Positions 3,796 to 64,000 of a stretch of 64,000 nucleotides of DNA are shown in pieces. The position numbers were made by a program, and so were the translations under genes. A model generated the notes under the pieces. The model saw only the letters and a list, made by a program, of their open reading frames with translations. It searched no databases and was not told the DNA's origin. The stretch's first letter is position 1; every line of letters begins with the position of its first letter. Origin of the DNA: a phage; the sequence record PQ400055.1, one strand, 5' to 3'.

Positions 3796-4935
3796 ATGAC
3801 ACAAGATATAGAATTACGCAATACTGGAATTAGGTTTGCGCATTTCGACGAAGACTCTGCGACATTTACCAGCATTTCAGAAAATAACTCTGTGATGTAT
3901 AAGCTGGAAGTGCGCGGATCTAATGCGGATTCTACCAAACCAGCAAGGATTAGATTTAATGGAGTGGAGATCGTTGGCACTGGCTATGAAAATGGCCTAA
4001 ATTTTAAAGTTCTTACTCCAACTGGACAACTACACGAAGAAAAGGTATTCTATGGTCGCGGTGCTGTTTTGGCAATGCGTGATTATCTTTCTTTGCTGAA
4101 AGGTGACTATATCATTGCGATGGCAACGCATGGAGAATTGTTTGCAGATCCGATCAGTGATGGTGTATTCTCTAAGCTGGGATCTGTATCATTCCCGAAT
4201 CACATTTTGCTACAGCAAATGCCTCGTGTATCATATGCAGCAATTTATTCTACTAAAATGGGTAAAATTGTGTGCGAAGGGATGCAAGCAACTCACGGGG
4301 AAGGACAAGATTCATCTATACAAATTGAGAAAGTCTATGATACTATAGATGATCTTGCTATAACAGGAACACCACAACGATTTTTAGATTATCCGGTTGA
4401 GTATGTTAGCGAAGATGCCGAACATTTCGAGCTAATACAATGGCCTCATGATGAGACCAGCGCCCCACTTGAGGATTTTAACATAAAGGCAGGTGACAAA
4501 CTATCAATATCCTTTGAATTGTTCCGTGATAGTGCCGCAGCCGCAGCCAACGTAACAGCGCGTTTCTATCACAACTACTTCACCGATGGACAATATCAAA
4601 CTGGTGTTCGATACAATGCCAGCAAAAAAGACCAATGGGAAAAGTTTGAAGCCGTCTATACCGTACCGGAAGGAGTTGATAGTGTAGTAACTGGTTGTAT
4701 CAGATATCCAACCAACTCCAATGAAGGTATTGTTAAAATTAGAAACATACTAATAACGCCGATCAGTGGAGTCGTCAAAACTACTGGTCCTACTTCATTT
4801 GGTGTTAATGGTGTTAGAACAACTCATATTCAGGATAACGGTGATTTTACTAACCCTGTAATGAGTCTTCTTAAACTACCCAGAGATAATAAACACATCA
4901 CATCCAACAACTTTAAAGAGTTCGATGTTGATTAA
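3796..4935 (+). CDS. 35: long tail fiber hinge connector (gp35)
   Basis: 379 aa (T4 gp35 372 aa); position between gp34 and gp36; sequence not compared directly. Confidence 0.7.
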   Translation: MTQDIELRNTGIRFAHFDEDSATFTSISENNSVMYKLEVRGSNADSTKPARIRFNGVEIVGTGYENGLNFKVLTPTGQLHEEKVFYGRGAVLAMRDYLSLLKGDYIIAMATHGELFADPISDGVFSKLGSVSFPNHILLQQMPRVSYAAIYSTKMGKIVCEGMQATHGEGQDSSIQIEKVYDTIDDLAITGTPQRFLDYPVEYVSEDAEHFELIQWPHDETSAPLEDFNIKAGDKLSISFELFRDSAAAAANVTARFYHNYFTDGQYQTGVRYNASKKDQWEKFEAVYTVPEGVDSVVTGCIRYPTNSNEGIVKIRNILITPISGVVKTTGPTSFGVNGVRTTHIQDNGDFTNPVMSLLKLPRDNKHITSNNFKEFDVD

Positions 4936-5096: not shown

Positions 5097-5104
5097 TATA
5101 AATA
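5097..5104 (+). promoter_or_regulatory. T4-type late promoter (TATAAATA) upstream of gene 36
   Basis: Exact tataaata ~35 nt upstream of the gene 36 ATG. Confidence 0.6.
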
Positions 5105-5137: not shown

Positions 5138-6628
5138 ATGGCAGATTTGAAATATGGATCTACTGTAGGTGGATCTCCCATTTGGACGCAAGGAAACTTG
5201 ACGATCCAGCCAGCGGGGGATCAGCTTTTCTACAAAGGTCATAAAATCTATACCGCTTTTGATAGACCTTCGGCTACCGATTTTGATGCTGTTAGTGCAT
5301 CCGAAGGTGGCACATTTCAAAAGCAAGTTCATTTCGAGGAAGGTTTAAGCGTAGGTAGCGCATCGGCTGGAGAAACCAAAAAGAATGGTATCTTTAAAGG
5401 TCAGAGCGACGCTGCTAATTTTGACGGCGTAAGCTGGGGTTTGCATTCATGGAAGTCAATCGGCTTTGTTAATGCCCGTGATGGCGTTATTATGGCGTAT
5501 ATTGACACCACAACGGGCGAATTTAAGTCTAAAGGGACTATCGAAGGGACAACCATTAAAGACACAGGTCAACGTGTCTATAGCCCTGTTAATAAACCAA
5601 CGAATAATGATTTGGATTTAGTTTCCCGTCGCGGTGATACTCTCTCAGGAACGTATAATTTAAACACTGTCACTGTTAAACTATCGGTTGATTCGAAATT
5701 AATTGCAAGGGAACGTGATTTAATTAATTTTGATGCGACTAAGATCTATTATGGTAACGTTCTTGATACGTTGGTCTTCCGAAGTAAAGATGAGCCTACC
5801 ATTTTTGTTAATGGCAGAGAAGGTCGTTTTTATCACACCAACAATAAACCAACTAAAGCCGATGTTGGGCTAGGCAATGTCACCAATGATGCACAGGTTA
5901 AACGTGCTGGTGATATTATGGAAGGTAACTTGCAAGCGCCTAGAATGTTGGCGACAAACGATCCCGCTGGTCCTAATGAATTGGTTCGTTTGAGCTACTT
6001 TGAGCGAAAATCAATGGTAGCAAATCCAACCATCATTGGAAACGTTGATTGGAACACTCTTATTAATCGCGGTATCTATCGTGTGGAAAATGCTGGGTCA
6101 GGTACTAATAAACCGTCTGATAGCTATTATAACGGCGTTTTGATGGTATATCGACCAGAAGATGCGGTCGGTACTCGTCGAATTGTTCAGGTGTATTATC
6201 CTGAATCTATTGACCATCCGATGTGCTGGCGTTCGTGTTCTAATGAATCATGGACTGCATGGAACTATGTAGATCACCGTAAATTAGCCGATATTCGCTA
6301 TGTTAACGTAACTGGCGATACCATGACAGGACCGTTAACTGTTCCGGCTGCAAATGGCGTTAGAACAGCTAAAACTAACTATAACGGGGATAACTGTTAT
6401 GCGGCGTTAAGCGGTGCTGATGGTACTGCTATGATTCACCGCATTAGTGATATTAAAGGGACCGAAAAGCTGGGGATCACCCACGACTCAAAGGTCGTGT
6501 TTTTCCGTTCTCGAAACAATACTCAAACCGTGGACCGCTATCAGCTTTATCATGAAGGTAATAAACCTACTCCGGCTGATGTTGGAGCGGTTCCACTTAA
6601 TGCGGTGATTGATTTTGGTACTTTCTAA
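5138..6628 (+). CDS. 36: long tail fiber distal connector (gp36), extended relative to T4
   Basis: N-terminus MADLKYGSTVGGSPIWTQGNL matches T4 gp36 MADLKVGSTTGGSVIWHQGNF; 496 aa vs 221 aa in T4; late promoter TATAAATA upstream. Confidence 0.82.
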   Translation: MADLKYGSTVGGSPIWTQGNLTIQPAGDQLFYKGHKIYTAFDRPSATDFDAVSASEGGTFQKQVHFEEGLSVGSASAGETKKNGIFKGQSDAANFDGVSWGLHSWKSIGFVNARDGVIMAYIDTTTGEFKSKGTIEGTTIKDTGQRVYSPVNKPTNNDLDLVSRRGDTLSGTYNLNTVTVKLSVDSKLIARERDLINFDATKIYYGNVLDTLVFRSKDEPTIFVNGREGRFYHTNNKPTKADVGLGNVTNDAQVKRAGDIMEGNLQAPRMLATNDPAGPNELVRLSYFERKSMVANPTIIGNVDWNTLINRGIYRVENAGSGTNKPSDSYYNGVLMVYRPEDAVGTRRIVQVYYPESIDHPMCWRSCSNESWTAWNYVDHRKLADIRYVNVTGDTMTGPLTVPAANGVRTAKTNYNGDNCYAALSGADGTAMIHRISDIKGTEKLGITHDSKVVFFRSRNNTQTVDRYQLYHEGNKPTPADVGAVPLNAVIDFGTF

Positions 6629-6698: not shown

Positions 6699-9629
6699 AT
6701 GGCAGATTTAAGCAGAATCCAATTTAAACGCACTAGCACTAAAGGTCGTAAACCGGATGCTAGTACGATGAATCCGGGGGAATTGGCAATCAACCTTGCG
6801 GATCAATATCTTCTTACTAAAAATGATTCCGGTGATATTATCAATTTAAGTTGTCCTCCGGTGTATGACCGCGATGTTACAATGGCGGGTAAGGTTAAAG
6901 GTAATAATTATATCTTAAGTAAAACCGCTAACTATCTGGAAGATCAGACAGCGAGAGATCTTAACTACTTTGGTGCTTTCCGTACCAATGGTCTTGATGG
7001 TCTTCTCGAACTCACGCTAAACGTTCCTCACTCTTCCGGTGTCCAATATGGTCGAGGATTTACTTTCCAGTATGGACATACTGGATCACGAGTAGAAACC
7101 TATGGCTATAATAGAGAAGGTCAAAAAGCATTTAGCTATAAAATGTATCACGAAGGTGATAAACCAACTCCAGGAGAATTGAACGTCTATAGCAAACAAG
7201 AAGTTGACCGTATGTTTGTTAAGAACGTTAAACTTGCTACATCTCCTCGTGATATCGTTGAAGGCTATTTTAAATTAGCAACTGCAATGATTCCACAAAA
7301 CGGTCTTAGCGTATTTTTCCGTATTCATGGCGGTAACGGATATAACGTTACTGCATACGATCAAGTTGATATTGTAGAAATTGTTATTCGCAGTGGAAAT
7401 GGTCGCCCTAAAGGTGTTAACGTTATTGCATATCGCCGAAATACAAACAAATCATTTGATGTTTTGGCTGTTAATACTTCTGGTGATAACTATGATATCT
7501 ATGTGAAATATCAGCGTTACACTGATAACGTTATTGTTGAATTTGGTAAAAGTGTTGGTGTTAATCTGGTAGTTCATGACGTTCCAGATTTTGTTGCTGA
7601 ACGTCCTGCTGGTGATAATGTTATTGGCGGTCGTGCTGTAACTCTTTTCAACACCGAAAATAAACGTGGTGTGTTAAGTTTTGATGATAACACACAAAAC
7701 AGCTATGACATTGTTCATCTAAGTAATGATAAAGGTACTGGACGGAAATATATTCGTAAATTCCGTAGCAATTATAACGAAATGGTTTGGCATGAAACCG
7801 TTCAGGGTGCTGTATATCGTCTTGCTACTGGTGCTACAGATTCTACAGAAGTTATTAGAATTGATTCTAATAGTGCAATACCGGGTAATTATAAAGGATA
7901 TGTAATTACTGGTAAAATGGAATTGCACGGTGGTGGTAATGCGATGACTTTACATCGACAGACTGGTCAAGCTGCATATATGGCGTGGTGGGATCGTCGT
8001 GATGGTAAAAACCAACGTAGTGGTTATATCGGTCATGCGGATGGTACTAGTGATGGTTTTGTGTGGCGTAATGATGTTGGTGCTAACTCATTTGATTTGG
8101 AAGGTAGTGGACAAGTAAATTTGACTACAGGAAAAACAAAAATTGTATATACCAATGGTCAATATTATTCCGCTAACGCTGATGCATTCCGTATGATTTA
8201 CGGTAAGTATGGTGCATTCTGGCGAAATGATGGTGGTAAAGTTTATCTGTTGTCTACTGCCGAAAATGATAGATTTGGTGGTTGGAATACATATCGACCT
8301 TTTATCTACGATCTTACTTCCGGTAACGTTCAATTAGGTGGTGATGGAAACGAAGATGTATTAACTCTAGAACGCGCAAGCAAGGCCGCTCGATTCTCTG
8401 GCAACGCTTACATCAAAGGTCAACATTTAACATTTGATGCTGGTGCTGGACAATCCCGCGATTACTTCCGGTTTAACCATTGGGGCGATAGTAATAACGC
8501 TCGCGATAACATCCTACAGATTGAAGACAGTCAGGGTGCACACTTTACCACTGAACGCGCTATGGGTACTGGCAATATCACAGCACGTTTTAAAGGCTTT
8601 GTGCGTGTAGAATCCGGTGAGATTGCCTTTGATGCTAATCGTGGATCTGCGTCTCAATTTACCTTACATACATGGGGTAACGAGCAACGCAAACAGGTTT
8701 TTGAATGTAAGGATGCTACTAGTTATCATTGGTATACCGAACGTACAAACGGTGGAACTGGTCCTATCCTGTTCTCTGTTGCTGGTACATTAAAAACTGC
8801 GAGCAATATACAGGTTGGCGGTGCTGATATTGAGTTTCGTCGCAGTGGTAATAAGCATTTATGGTTTAGAGATCCGAACGGTTTAGAATTAGGTTTGATG
8901 TACTGCGATGATGCTGGTGTTATCCGCTTCCGTGGTCAGAAACAAGGTCAAACTTGGAAACTTGCTGATAAAATGATTCATCTTGAGGCGGGGACTGTCG
9001 GCGGGTCTGATAAAGGTTTGATTCGTGGTAATGTTGCTGGTGGTAGCTGGGCTAGCTGGCGTGATCGTTCTGCCGGAATCCTCGTAGACTGTCCGAACTC
9101 AACCGATTCCGCTCATAACATCTGGAAAGCGACTCATTGGGGAAAATATCATATTGCGGCAATGGGTGTGCATGTTCCTAGGGGTACTATTACCAATGCT
9201 TTAGCTCGCCTAAACGTTCACGACGCCAACTTTGACTTTAACGCTGCGGGTGATTTTAGCGCAGGTCGTAACGGTAGCTTTAACGATGTTTATATTCGTT
9301 CTGATACTCGCCTTAAAATCAATAAGGAAGAGTATAAGGAGAATGCCACCGATAAAGTTAATCGCTTGACGGTATACACCTATGACAAGGTTAAATCTTT
9401 AACCGACCGTACTGTCATTGCTCATGAAGTTGGTATTATTGCTCAGGATCTTGAAAAAGAATTGCCGGAAGCCGTAACAACTTCTAAGATCGGCGATCCA
9501 GATAATCCAGAAGAGATCTTAACAATTTCTAACTCCGCTATCAACGCTCTTTTAATTAAGGCGTTTCAGGAAATGAGCGAAGAATTGAAAGCCGTTAAAG
9601 CTGAACTAGCGGAACTTAAAAAGAATTAA
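6699..9629 (+). CDS. 37: long tail fiber distal subunit (gp37) with C-terminal intramolecular chaperone-like domain
   Basis: N-terminus [29 protein letters not shown] matches T4 gp37 [29 protein letters not shown]; C-terminal ~110 aa ([14 protein letters not shown]...AELKKN) resembles peptidase S74 auto-cleaving chaperone. Confidence 0.88.
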   Translation: [976 protein letters not shown]

Positions 9630-9669
9630 GGAAACTCCCAGGGAAGGGAACTACTAAGGAGAAACGGCT

Positions 9670-9909
9670 ATGGTCTATAATATCGTCATTGGTGCTTTGT
9701 CTAATTTCGGAATGAAATTATTGTCAAAGTTAATTAGTGAAAAGATGCTCACTAAAATTTTCTTCTATTGCGCTCGTCGTCTTGCGGCCTATACCAATAC
9801 GCCAATTGATGATCGTTTCGTGGAAGAACTTTATAAGGAGTTTAATAAAGATCAGTCAGAAGATAGTAACGAGCAAGATAAACCTAGTGATAGTCAAGTA
9901 CCTAAATAA
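9670..9909 (+). CDS. hypothetical small protein with hydrophobic N-terminus, in the position of T4 gene 38
   Basis: 79 aa ORF with strong RBS aaggag 8 nt upstream; hydrophobic N-terminus, acidic C-terminus; no recognisable gp38 similarity. Confidence 0.5.
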   Translation: MVYNIVIGALSNFGMKLLSKLISEKMLTKIFFYCARRLAAYTNTPIDDRFVEELYKEFNKDQSEDSNEQDKPSDSQVPK

Positions 9910-9942: not shown

Positions 9943-10599
9943 ATGCAAGTTTCTGAAAAAGGGAAAGACTTTGCTATCTCAAATGTCCTGCGCGCTATTT
10001 TCACAACTAAAAGCACGGAGTTGCTCGTACTTCGTGTTTTTGCTGCCGTCGTGTTGTCCATATTAGCATTTGTCGTTTATAGTAAAAACGAGTTATTTGC
10101 GCTTTATAAAGAGACTCGTTATGAGACTTATGCTCACATTCTCCAGGTAGAGAAAGACCGCAATTTTGATAATGCAGCACAGGAGCAGTTACAGATAGTT
10201 CATGTGTCGGCTGATGCCGATTTTTCTGCTGTTTTTAGTTTTCGTCCGAAAAACCTAAACTATTTTGTTGATTTGGTGGCATATGAAGGAAAGCTACCGC
10301 ATACAATCGATGAAAAAAATTTAGGCGGATTCCCTATCAATAAAACGAGTGAAGAATATCGTAGGCATCTTTTAGGTAAATCATATTTTACCGATAAAGA
10401 TTTCCAGTATATTCCATCAAGAGAAAAGAAATTAGAGAATATCGATATAGGTTTCATGTATTCTTGTCCTATATTCAATCTCGATAATGTCTATTCTGGT
10501 AGTATCGCCATTTCATGGAAGAATAAACCGGATATTGACATTGAGAATTTAGATACTCTTTGCAATCAATCTGCCAGAATCCTCGGAAGGATTAGATAA
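9943..10599 (+). CDS. t: holin
   Basis: 218 aa, same length as T4 holin t; motifs YKETRYETYAHILQVEKDR, QLQIVHVSADADFSAVFSFRPKNLNYFVDLVAYEGKLP and MYSCPIFNLDNVYSG match T4 t. Confidence 0.92.
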   Translation: MQVSEKGKDFAISNVLRAIFTTKSTELLVLRVFAAVVLSILAFVVYSKNELFALYKETRYETYAHILQVEKDRNFDNAAQEQLQIVHVSADADFSAVFSFRPKNLNYFVDLVAYEGKLPHTIDEKNLGGFPINKTSEEYRRHLLGKSYFTDKDFQYIPSREKKLENIDIGFMYSCPIFNLDNVYSGSIAISWKNKPDIDIENLDTLCNQSARILGRIR

Positions 10600-10604
10600 C
10601 TTAA

Positions 10605-10638
10605 AGGGGAAGCCTTTCGGCCTCCCCTTCTTTTTTAT
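10605..10638 (+). terminator. terminator after holin t, at the convergence with minus-strand genes
   Basis: aggggaagcc-tttc-ggcctcccct followed by tcttttttatt. Confidence 0.75.
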
Positions 10639-10883
10639 TGGCGCATAGAAGCCCCTGAATCACATTTTGACGCTGTATGATGAAAACAGGTAGCGTACCA
10701 GTCATCGGCTTGTTTGTCTTCGTCAGAAAACGCGTAATTGCGTTGTATGCCGTTTTCTACTTTGACCAGTGCAATAGCTGTTTCTGGAAGATCAATCAAT
10801 CGGACAAAATCGCCATCTTCCCATTCTACACGAGCAATATCATAACCCATCTCAAAATAAACAATCGCTTGTTCTAATTTCAT
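10635..10883 (-). CDS. hypothetical protein
   Basis: 82 aa ORF convergent with t; no recognisable similarity. Confidence 0.45.
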   Translation of the reverse strand: MKLEQAIVYFEMGYDIARVEWEDGDFVRLIDLPETAIALVKVENGIQRNYAFSDEDKQADDWYATCFHHTASKCDSGASMRQ

Positions 10884-12449: not shown

Positions 12450-13208
12450 TTACTTGCAAACGTATTGATCTACATCAATTGCGCCACCGAATGTGGGATG
12501 ACGTTTTTCAAATCGAATAGTTCCGTCGTTTGGTTCGAAAACGGAGTATTCATATAGATCTTTCTTGCCAACATTCTTATAAAACCCGCCTTTCGTCATA
12601 ACGGTTTCTTGTACGTTTGCTTTGTGTACGTTGTATTCATCAATGTATACAAAATCAACCATCTTCCCATTTTTAATGGTTACTTTAAGATCCCCTGGCT
12701 GGTTTCCATATTTTGCATACAGTGGAGCCTCTTTAATTTTTGTGGAAATTCCATCTTTCATACTCCACTCATAACGAACGGTGCATTGATAGGTAAAAGT
12801 TTCGACCTTCGGTTCTTCTACCACTTTTGCTTCCTGTTTCGGTTGTTCTTCTTCAACCTTCGCAGAAGTCTCTGAATCGCTTTCTGACGCGGTTTCTTCT
12901 TTAGGTAATACATTCATCAAGTTTTGGATTTGAGCGTTATATACAGCCTCCAGTGGCTGAATCTGCCCGATATTGATCATTGTATCACGAACAGTTTTAT
13001 TCCAGTTTCGTTGCTCTTGTTTCAGAGACGGATCAATCTTAACAGCCTTAACATACACCTCATGAAGTTTAGAGTCCAGTGCGGAGATAGACTCATTAGC
13101 ACAAATAAACTTCTCTGATTTGGTAGTAGCTTTAGCGCAATCAAAGGACGCAGCGTTAGCACCGAAAGCAGTAGCAGAAAGAACGATAGCAGCGATAATG
13201 TTTTTCAT
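12450..13208 (-). CDS. secreted protein with LprI/DUF1311-like (lysozyme-inhibitor-type) N-terminal domain
   Basis: 252 aa; signal peptide MKNIIAAIVLSATAFGANAAS; motif FDCAKATTKSEKFICANESISALDSKLHEVY...EQRNWNKTVRD fits the DUF1311 pattern; preceded by promoter cassette at 13237-13271. Confidence 0.6.
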   Translation of the reverse strand: MKNIIAAIVLSATAFGANAASFDCAKATTKSEKFICANESISALDSKLHEVYVKAVKIDPSLKQEQRNWNKTVRDTMINIGQIQPLEAVYNAQIQNLMNVLPKEETASESDSETSAKVEEEQPKQEAKVVEEPKVETFTYQCTVRYEWSMKDGISTKIKEAPLYAKYGNQPGDLKVTIKNGKMVDFVYIDEYNVHKANVQETVMTKGGFYKNVGKKDLYEYSVFEPNDGTIRFEKRHPTFGGAIDVDQYVCK

Positions 13209-44651: not shown

Positions 44652-45676
44652 TAACTTTTTGCGCTATTTACTTCTGCTAAAAGTTCATCAGAGATACGCT
44701 TAACTGCCGCAAGTTCTTCCGGTTCTAGGTTTTGTTCTTCCAGATATTCATAGACCATCTGAATAGTGCTTTTAACTTCAATAACACCTGTTTCCTGTGA
44801 TGCGCTACTCTCCAGTTTATGGACCACTTTTAGCTTGTGTACAACGGCCTCTAACGCGCTTTCTAACTTAGTTAACCCATTATCAGCAACCGTTGCAATA
44901 AGACGCACACTAAGCCCCTTAAAGCGTTCTACATCGATTTTATCATCTGACGGGTAAGTGATACGCACATGATAAGTTTTGTCATTCTGGATAAACTCTT
45001 TTTTGTGTGTATCGGTATCGAATACCCAAAACCCACGCGGATCGTTTTCGTCACCCGCCGTTAGTGTGTATGGTGTACCGATATACGTTACATTACCGCC
45101 ATCGCTGATAGTATGAAAATGACCGGAAAACACTTCACGGTATTTCTTGAGGAAGTCCGCGCTATAACCTTCGGATTTTAGCCCTTTATAGAAATAGTAA
45201 CCGGACAATTCCCAATGGCCTACACAATATTCGCTGAATGAGTTTTGAATAAACTCTAAAATCTCTGATTTATTGTCATCACAAAACCACGGGAACAGAT
45301 CAAATGATACACCATCAAAGGTAACTGTTTCCGGTTTATCGATAACCTTAATGCAATCATACTGGCTTAACACTTCACGCGGTGCGTTAGGCTGGATCTT
45401 GTTTCGTTTAAACATATCATGGTTCCCGACCGTGATATAACAAGTAATTCCAGCCTCTTCCAGTAATGGGATGACCTTAGTACGGTTAAATTTCATGGTT
45501 TCATGGGTAATTGCTTTTCGGCAATCAAACCAATCCCCTGTTTGAATCCATGTCTTAATATTATGCTCTTTGGAGTATTCAACCGCCTTCTTGATGGTAT
45601 CAAGAATATACTCATGCACCCACGGATCATCGCCACCGATACCAGTATGCAGATCACCTAAAAGCAAAATTTTCAT
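44651..45676 (-). CDS. 47: recombination endonuclease subunit gp47 (Mre11/SbcD-like)
   Basis: 341 aa (T4 339 aa); calcineurin-like phosphoesterase motifs LGDLH, GNHD, GHFH. Confidence 0.88.
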   Translation of the reverse strand: MKILLLGDLHTGIGGDDPWVHEYILDTIKKAVEYSKEHNIKTWIQTGDWFDCRKAITHETMKFNRTKVIPLLEEAGITCYITVGNHDMFKRNKIQPNAPREVLSQYDCIKVIDKPETVTFDGVSFDLFPWFCDDNKSEILEFIQNSFSEYCVGHWELSGYYFYKGLKSEGYSADFLKKYREVFSGHFHTISDGGNVTYIGTPYTLTAGDENDPRGFWVFDTDTHKKEFIQNDKTYHVRITYPSDDKIDVERFKGLSVRLIATVADNGLTKLESALEAVVHKLKVVHKLESSASQETGVIEVKSTIQMVYEYLEEQNLEPEELAAVKRISDELLAEVNSAKS

Positions 45677-45721
45677 AGTCTCTTCCTCTCTTCGTTTTCG
45701 ATGCTCTCACTATATCACAGA

Positions 45722-45746
45722 AAAATAAAAAGGGAAACCCCTTTCA
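45722..45746 (-). terminator. weak terminator-like hairpin upstream of gene 47
   Basis: Minus-strand aaaggg-gttt-cccttt followed by ttatttttc. Confidence 0.4.
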
Positions 45747-45766
45747 GAGTCTCCCTTATAAAGCCA

Positions 45767-46054
45767 TTACAGCATACTTAATACCGTTTGCCGTGTACTA
45801 ATCCACATAGCAGAAAGCAGTTCTGGCGTGTGTGGCTGTTTGTAGATATCACGTAACTTTCCGATAGCGTAGATATACGCATCACGGTTATCATCGATGA
45901 TAGCTTGTTCAGCCCACCGCTTAAGGCGTGCAATCTCTCGCGAGTTCTTACGCAAGATCTTTTCCGCTTTCTTAGCGGCTTTAGCCTCTAGTTCTGCTTG
46001 TACTTTGTCTACTTCATTCACTGCAATCTGGTCATGCTGTTCATTGCAAGTCAT
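45767..46054 (-). CDS. hypothetical protein
   Basis: 95 aa, predicted helical. Confidence 0.45.
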   Translation of the reverse strand: MTCNEQHDQIAVNEVDKVQAELEAKAAKKAEKILRKNSREIARLKRWAEQAIIDDNRDAYIYAIGKLRDIYKQPHTPELLSAMWISTRQTVLSML

Positions 46055-46055
46055 A

Positions 46056-46289
46056 TTATTTTACCTCTGGGATATAATCAATTATTAAAGAAAATTCATC
46101 TTCTGATACATTATAGCTATGTGAGATTGTACCCGTAAAGACCTCAAGATCCGGTGATTTGATATTGCACGGATCGATAATCACCGGAACGCCGCAATCT
46201 CTCAAAAATAATTTGGCGAAATACGGCACAAGGTCAGTTTCAAACTCTGCTTCTTCCAGCAAACGGGAAATGTTAATTTTCAATCTCAT
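46056..46289 (-). CDS. hypothetical protein
   Basis: 77 aa ORF. Confidence 0.4.
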
Positions 46290-63924: not shown

Positions 63925-64000
63925 CATAAAATTACACACGAGCGCCGTAGATCGTGCCTACTTTATCCCAGCGTGGGGCATTACCAGTAACAGCTTTACC

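Follow-up and report, generated by a model that had tools for sequence, protein, structure and literature searches.

We conclude that the tail fibre locus in a 64,000-nucleotide stretch of phage DNA from sequence record PQ400055.1 (hereafter the window), which comprises gene 37 and a small open reading frame (ORF) of 79 residues situated between gene 37 and the holin gene t, is very probably a standard RB49-like fibre locus with a self-cleaving gp37 capped by gp38, a gene 38 displaced from its neighbour, and a lysis-related small ORF. In the scheme we propose, gp37 would be made as a 976-residue precursor in which the C-terminal 109 residues make up a trimeric intramolecular chaperone and assist the distal beta-helix in folding. 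The chaperone would cut itself off at Ser868, with Lys873 acting as the base, and the freed end of gp37 would then be capped by the gp38 adhesin, the predicted receptor-binding protein, which is encoded about 54 kb downstream on the opposite strand. The product of the 79-residue ORF, which is homologous to gp l of phage PM2, would probably be expressed together with holin t and act as an accessory factor in lysis. The locus has approximately 90% nucleotide identity over its whole 3.9 kb to several genomes of Krischvirus (RB49-like T4-type coliphages) in megablast, with the same gene order. Publications on RB49 already describe the gp37 S74 chaperone, the displacement of gene 38 and the small ORF that occupies its usual position; the explanation has little importance beyond correct annotation.

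An earlier note on this DNA, made from its letters alone, had proposed that the last ~110 residues of gp37 resemble the self-cleaving peptidase S74 chaperones of other phage fibres, and our analysis bears this out. Base 9300 opens the codon of Ser868 in an S-D-T-R-L-K motif, and from Ser868 to the AELKKN terminus there are 109 residues. In a Pfam profile search, PF13884 (Peptidase_S74) matched gp37 residues 868-927 with an E value of 8.6e-11 and a score of 42.4 bits, relative to a curated cut-off of 22 bits for this family, a similarity greater than chance. PF13884 is also recorded in 19 of the 22 homologues retrieved, and the motif S-D-x-R-L-K is kept by every homologue that reaches across the predicted cleavage site. 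In T5 pb1, Ser1264 is both the scissile and the catalytic residue, it is activated by Lys1269, and cleavage separates Thr1263 from Ser1264 (PMC4690869); Ser868 of gp37 corresponds to Ser1264, and the spacing of Ser868 and Lys873 is identical to that of the T5 pair. Because the profile match, the conserved motif and the T5-like Ser/Lys spacing all point the same way, we consider the assignment of the gp37 C-terminus to the peptidase S74 chaperone family to be well supported. The tail also has the fold of the solved chaperone domains, that is, a mixed alpha-beta part followed by a C-terminal coiled-coil helix, and among the sequences of solved structures in the PDB the nearest to it comes from gp37 of Salmonella phage S16 (6F45_A, E 8.7e-5). 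A tblastn search located the S74 chaperone domain in 1247 phage records, including those of T2 gp37 and the T5-like L-shaped fibres, and its autoproteolytic release has been stated for T2 and T6 (Trojet 2011, PMC3157838).

Upstream of the chaperone, gp37 carries a match to PF21446 (Gp34 trimerisation domain) at residues 426-537 (E 1.3e-38). Its residues 151-350 and 551-750 are only 46-78% identical to those of RB49 gp37, with flanks that are 86-100% identical, and the distal block immediately before the chaperone (residues 751-867) is 86-96% identical. The diverged internal blocks suggest mosaic exchange within the fibre shaft. There was no T4 gp37 chain, and so no T4 gp37 tip, among the PDB sequence matches of gp37, and nothing in NCBIfam matched gp35, gp36, gp37 or the 79-residue ORF.

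Where, then, is the adhesin? There is no gp38-like gene between genes 37 and t, just as the earlier note had stated, and gene 38 is not directly 3′ of gene 37, which is followed by the 79-residue ORF and then by t. Adjacency of genes 37 and 38 is usual for fibres of the T2/S16 type, and it does not define the mechanism. The note had gone on to state that gene 38 is replaced by the 79-residue ORF, and this holds for the position of the ORF; it does not hold as a loss of the gene, the 3′ end of which we found on the minus strand at the far end of the window. In a tblastn search of the window with RB49 gp38, nucleotides 63935-64000 (minus strand) were 100% identical to gp38 residues 237-258, and the same segment, GKAVTGNAPRWDKVGTIYGARV, is also identical to the end of kaaroe gp38. 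This gp38 end sits at the extreme edge of the window, and a reading of the fibre locus alone would overlook gene 38. In RB49, g38 is RB49p079, at 45367-46143 on the minus strand, and is annotated as “similar to T2 and RB69 gp38 adhesin”; synteny places its counterpart just beyond the end of the window. The genome of kaaroe shares 98.4% identity with the final 3 kb of the window, and there the corresponding stretch closes a 261-residue “tail fiber/host adhesion protein”. The full-length gp38 proteins of RB49 and kaaroe both match PF05268 (GP38, E about 1e-71) and PF21721 (Gp38_N, E about 5e-18), and 58 Krischvirus records span this end of the window with a coverage of at least 80%. On the evidence of the window and its relatives, gene 38 is displaced, not lost, as was described for RB49, where g38 has moved to a distant locus and a small ORF stands in its place (Trojet 2011, PMC3157838). 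What gp38 would do in this phage we take from the literature: RB49 gp37 sheds its C-terminal chaperone, after which gp38 caps gp37 (Efimov 2022, PMC9569957), and the fibre of S16 is likewise capped by a gp38 adhesin (PMC6851490).

Several considerations weigh against this account of the fibre. Gene 38 of this phage is seen for 22 codons only and we infer the rest of it from relatives, just as we infer cleavage of gp37 at Ser868 from its motif. Arg and Asp residues occur within 30 residues upstream of Ser868, and they are no more than candidates for the Arg sensor, contributed by a neighbouring chain, and the Asp with which the catalytic site is completed in T5 and K1F. Moreover, in the PDB sequence search residues 761-976 of gp37 had no detectable similarity to the docking region of S16 gp37, the chaperone domain excepted.

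The 79-residue ORF requires a different explanation. Judged by its family, it is unrelated to the fibre proteins, and with moderate confidence we interpret it as an accessory lysis gene that belongs with holin t. The ORF product is identical to its RB49 counterpart at 76 of 79 residues, and its relatives that are 92% identical, as well as more distant members, carry the annotation PF26925 (Phage_PM2_Gpl). A word-based search with the ORF retrieved close relatives only, every one of which had a precomputed PF26925 hit, and an exhaustive profile search with a limit of E ≤ 0.001 retrieved 20 cluster representatives, which are 61-87 residues long with one exception. Common to these proteins are a Glu that is conserved and the core T-x-T-x-x-D-D. 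Comparison of the family profile with PM2 gp l (NC_000867) in hhalign gave a probability of 95.9% and an E value of 5e-9 over 43 columns; pairwise BLASTP of the ORF against gp l was, by itself, not significant. A Pfam scan of the ORF returned no real match, using a copy of Pfam without PF26925 in which PM2 gp l itself matches nothing, and the PHROGs family of the ORF, phrog_402, is listed there as of unknown function. Homologues of the ORF are present in 392 phage records, and in all the annotated records that were sampled they are named “hypothetical protein”; tblastn with PM2 gp l found 13 records, and a scan of viral contigs with the close alignment of the ORF found only two loci.

The properties of the protein are consistent with its place in this family. 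The earlier note had credited it with a strong ribosome-binding site, a holin gene downstream and a hydrophobic N-terminus, of which the first two are as described (the Shine-Dalgarno sequence is AAGGAG) and the third applies in moderate degree only: the best 19-residue Kyte-Doolittle mean is 1.31, where PM2 gp l reaches 1.10 and the membrane helix of holin t 2.86. By prediction, then, the N-terminus is amphipathic, basic and moderately hydrophobic, with no clear membrane helix. AlphaFold2 models the protein as three helices with an acidic tail (predicted local distance difference test score, pLDDT, 80.7), and a Foldseek search with this model against BFVD matched only uncharacterised small phage proteins. 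In RB49 the ORF has been annotated twice at 154699-154938 (locus L001, 8983-9222), as RB49p252 from a GTG and as dc5 from the internal Met15; an ATG stands at the longer start in the window, which favours the 79-residue form. We rejected a spanin reading of the ORF, as there is no Cys in its first 33 residues for a lipobox and no membrane helix.

What could a protein of this kind contribute to lysis? RB49 is one of the phages that Krupovic and Bamford (2007) named as carrying a homologue of the lysis-associated protein P18 of PM2 (PMC1950889), and according to accounts of PM2 (PMC1950889 and PMC6356626) P18 aids disintegration of the outer membrane at lysis. In the window the ORF ends 33 nucleotides upstream of t, with no terminator between them in a consensus scan. 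In PM2, gp l comes after the holin-like gp k, and in two Vibrio phages the homologue directly follows lysozyme, with no fibre gene nearby. In the Ounavirinae (Mordin, phiEa21-4) the homologue comes after a tail fibre or tail protein gene and directly before a phrog_4038 gene, a holin in the Mordin annotation; the phrog_4038 gene is always 3′ of the gp l-like gene in these phages, and the stop of the gp l-like gene overlaps or abuts the phrog_4038 start (loci L009, 3492-4060, and L013, 2492-3036). The same pairing is present in a metagenomic contig (L007, 160-725). The name holin is given to phrog_4038 solely in the Mordin record, and PHROGs gives its function as unknown.

Could the ORF instead encode a factor for fibre or virion assembly, either a small chaperone or a membrane-associated helper? 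The ORF is directly 3′ of a tail fibre gene in both Krischvirus and the Ounavirinae, its homologues in Lahexavirus, Grimontviridae and Bjornvirus are found within structural modules near tail or fibre genes, and Trojet 2011 (PMC3157838) raised the possibility of fibre chaperones for the small ORFs after gene 37 in a distant phage, Aeh1. Set against these observations are the two Vibrio phage homologues, which lie far from any fibre gene, and PM2 itself, which has no tail fibres and whose gp l is lysis-associated. For the fibre upstream of the Mordin homologue the annotation gives a T7 Gp17 C-terminal domain instead of S74, from which it follows that the gp l-like proteins do not depend on the presence of an S74 fibre, and a sample of 60 records drawn from across the ranked hits contained no T2- or T4-type phage. 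We therefore regard a role in assembly as unlikely, albeit the strongest competitor to an accessory role in lysis.

It is much less probable still that the ORF encodes a cytoplasmic regulator of holin T, that is, an RIII-like antiholin or timing factor, and not a disruptor of the outer membrane. Its short distance from t with no intervening terminator speaks for such a regulator, as do the small size and helical structure of the protein and its lack of a membrane helix, but the ORF has no match to the lysis-inhibition families in PHROGs or Pfam, its homologues adjoin holins unrelated to T (phrog_4038 and PM2 gp k) and an endolysin, and the PM2 defect is described, in the accounts cited above, at the outer-membrane step.

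An accessory lysis gene thus remains our preferred interpretation of the ORF, and there are arguments that count against it. The homologues in Lahexavirus, Grimontviridae and Bjornvirus have no annotated lysis gene alongside them. RB49-like and Felix O1-like phages encode two-component spanins, so that an additional outer-membrane factor is not obviously needed in them; PM2, PaP3 and the cyanophages named by Krupovic stand on the list of spanin-less phages. Lastly, as we read the record, a function in lysis is known for the gp l family from PM2 alone. The neighbourhood of the cyanophage homologue was uninformative. A more ambitious proposal would be that, in a coliphage that bears spanins, a PM2 gp l-like protein beside holin t disrupts the outer membrane at lysis as a working factor of a third kind, distinct from both the spanins and the cationic “disruptin” peptides. 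We advance this tentatively, as an idea somewhat more apt to fail than to hold, but if it is true, a step of lysis for which the marine phage PM2 has so far been the only object of study would become accessible to genetics in E. coli.

The earlier note had drawn two further conclusions, that the fibre tip folds by a gp38-independent route and that gp37 itself forms the receptor-binding tip, as in T5 pb1, with the S74 chaperone in place of gp38-assisted folding and no gp38 adhesin; we give this model hardly any credence, for although no gp38-like gene follows gene 37, the internal blocks of gp37 vary relative to RB49, and in T5 pb1 the receptor-binding tip directly precedes this type of chaperone (PMC4690869), the window carries the gp38 end and the full gene is present in RB49 and kaaroe, gp38 caps gp37 in RB49, the host-range mutations of RB49 are in gp38 (E230K/Y231S; Efimov 2022, PMC9569957), T2 and S16 have both an S74 chaperone domain and a gp38 adhesin, which means that neither excludes the other, and the gp37 block adjoining the chaperone is conserved. 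With residues 751-867 conserved and the variability internal, a docking platform for gp38 fits this part of gp37 better than a receptor-binding tip. For the gp38-capped fibre that we favour, the practical consequence is that the host range of this phage is to be read from gp38, not from the tip of gp37.

The features of the window are collected in Table 1.

Table 1. Features of the fibre locus, its neighbours and the gene 38 end, with positions in the window.
Feature	Position	Strand	Remarks
gp35-like	3796-4935	+	
T4-type late-promoter motif, TATAAATA	5097..5104	+	exact match; 34 nucleotides upstream of gene 36
gp36-like	5138-6628	+	496 residues
Gene 37, long-tail-fibre distal subunit precursor	6699..9629	+	976 residues, 108.3 kDa; phrog_1699, E 2e-187
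Predicted mature gp37, residues 1-867	6699..9299	+	96.1 kDa; boundary inferred from the S74 cleavage-site motif
gp37 C-terminal intramolecular chaperone (peptidase S74)	9300..9626	+	109 residues, 12.2 kDa; release after trimer folding predicted
Ser868 codon	9300..9302	+	nucleophile by prediction; cleavage predicted before Ser868
Lys873 codon	9315..9317	+	predicted general base (Ser+5)
Shine-Dalgarno sequence AAGGAG	9656..9661	+	8 nucleotides upstream of the ATG of the 79-residue ORF; read from sequence
79-residue ORF, RB49p252/dc5 homologue, PM2 gp l / P18 family	9670..9909	+	phrog_402, E 5e-20
Gene t, T-type holin	9943..10599	+	218 residues; PF11031, E 4.5e-61; phrog_860, E 5e-88
Hairpin and U-run after t	10604..10639	+	folding energy -16.8 kcal/mol, z -2.4
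Gene 38 3′ end, tail-fibre adhesin	63932..64000	-	last 22 codons and stop, cut by the window end; translates to GKAVTGNAPRWDKVGTIYGARV followed by the stop

The late-promoter motif upstream of gene 36 may drive a late transcript of genes 36, 37, the 79-residue ORF and t. It is the sole exact match to TATAAATA in the 64-kb window, a count that is not above chance; shuffled sequence yields about five, and thus the rest of the window has fewer copies than expected. The hairpin after t is a probable terminator between convergent genes, t and a minus-strand ORF that ends at 10635, and it was missed by the consensus terminator scan because its stem has one mismatch. Two further observations concern other proteins. 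The gp36-like protein is more than twice as long as a T4-type gp36 (roughly 220 residues), and its match to the T4 gp36 family of Pfam, at the N-terminus, is weak and below threshold (E 3e-4). In the early region, a minus-strand ORF of 252 residues (12450-13208) has a signal-peptide-like N-terminus that begins MKNIIAAIVLSATAFGANAAS, and it matches RB49p262, a hypothetical protein, in position and length.

How does this locus compare with those of better known phages? The 79-residue ORF and PM2 gp l / P18 have in common that they are small and helical, lack a membrane helix, share the E...T-x-T-x-x-D-D core and have a holin as neighbour, with the difference that the ORF is 28 residues longer and has an acidic tail; in addition, the RB49-like host phage of the ORF has T4-type spanins, whereas PM2 is listed as spanin-less. 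In T4, gp38 is a folding chaperone and the needle of gp37 is the receptor binder; the overall order 34-35-36-37 ... t is common to T4 and the window, but gp37 in the window ends in an S74 domain and the gp38 of its relatives is of the adhesin type. The chaperones of K1F endosialidase (3GW6), T5 pb1 (4UW8), the GA-1 neck appendage (3GUD) and MyRF ICA (7DC3) share family, Ser/Lys motif and fold with that of gp37, and those of K1F, T5, GA-1 and MyRF are C-terminal in a trimeric fibre protein, as in gp37. In T5 and K1F, however, binding or degradation of the receptor is the work of the mature protein itself, whereas in the phage of the window a separate adhesin would be borne on the cleaved end.

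The fibre tips of T2 and S16 combine a chaperone homologous to that of gp37 in the window (41% identity for T2 gp37; PDB 6F45 for S16) with an adjacent gene 38; in the window gene 38 is not beside gene 37, and gp37 upstream of the chaperone has no detectable sequence similarity to that of S16. In RB49 the arrangement of gene 37, RB49p252/dc5 and t, with RB49p079 at a distance, is the same gene order as in the window, at about 90% nucleotide identity. The two loci differ in the diverged internal blocks of gp37 and in the start codon of the small ORF, which is GTG in RB49 and ATG in the window.

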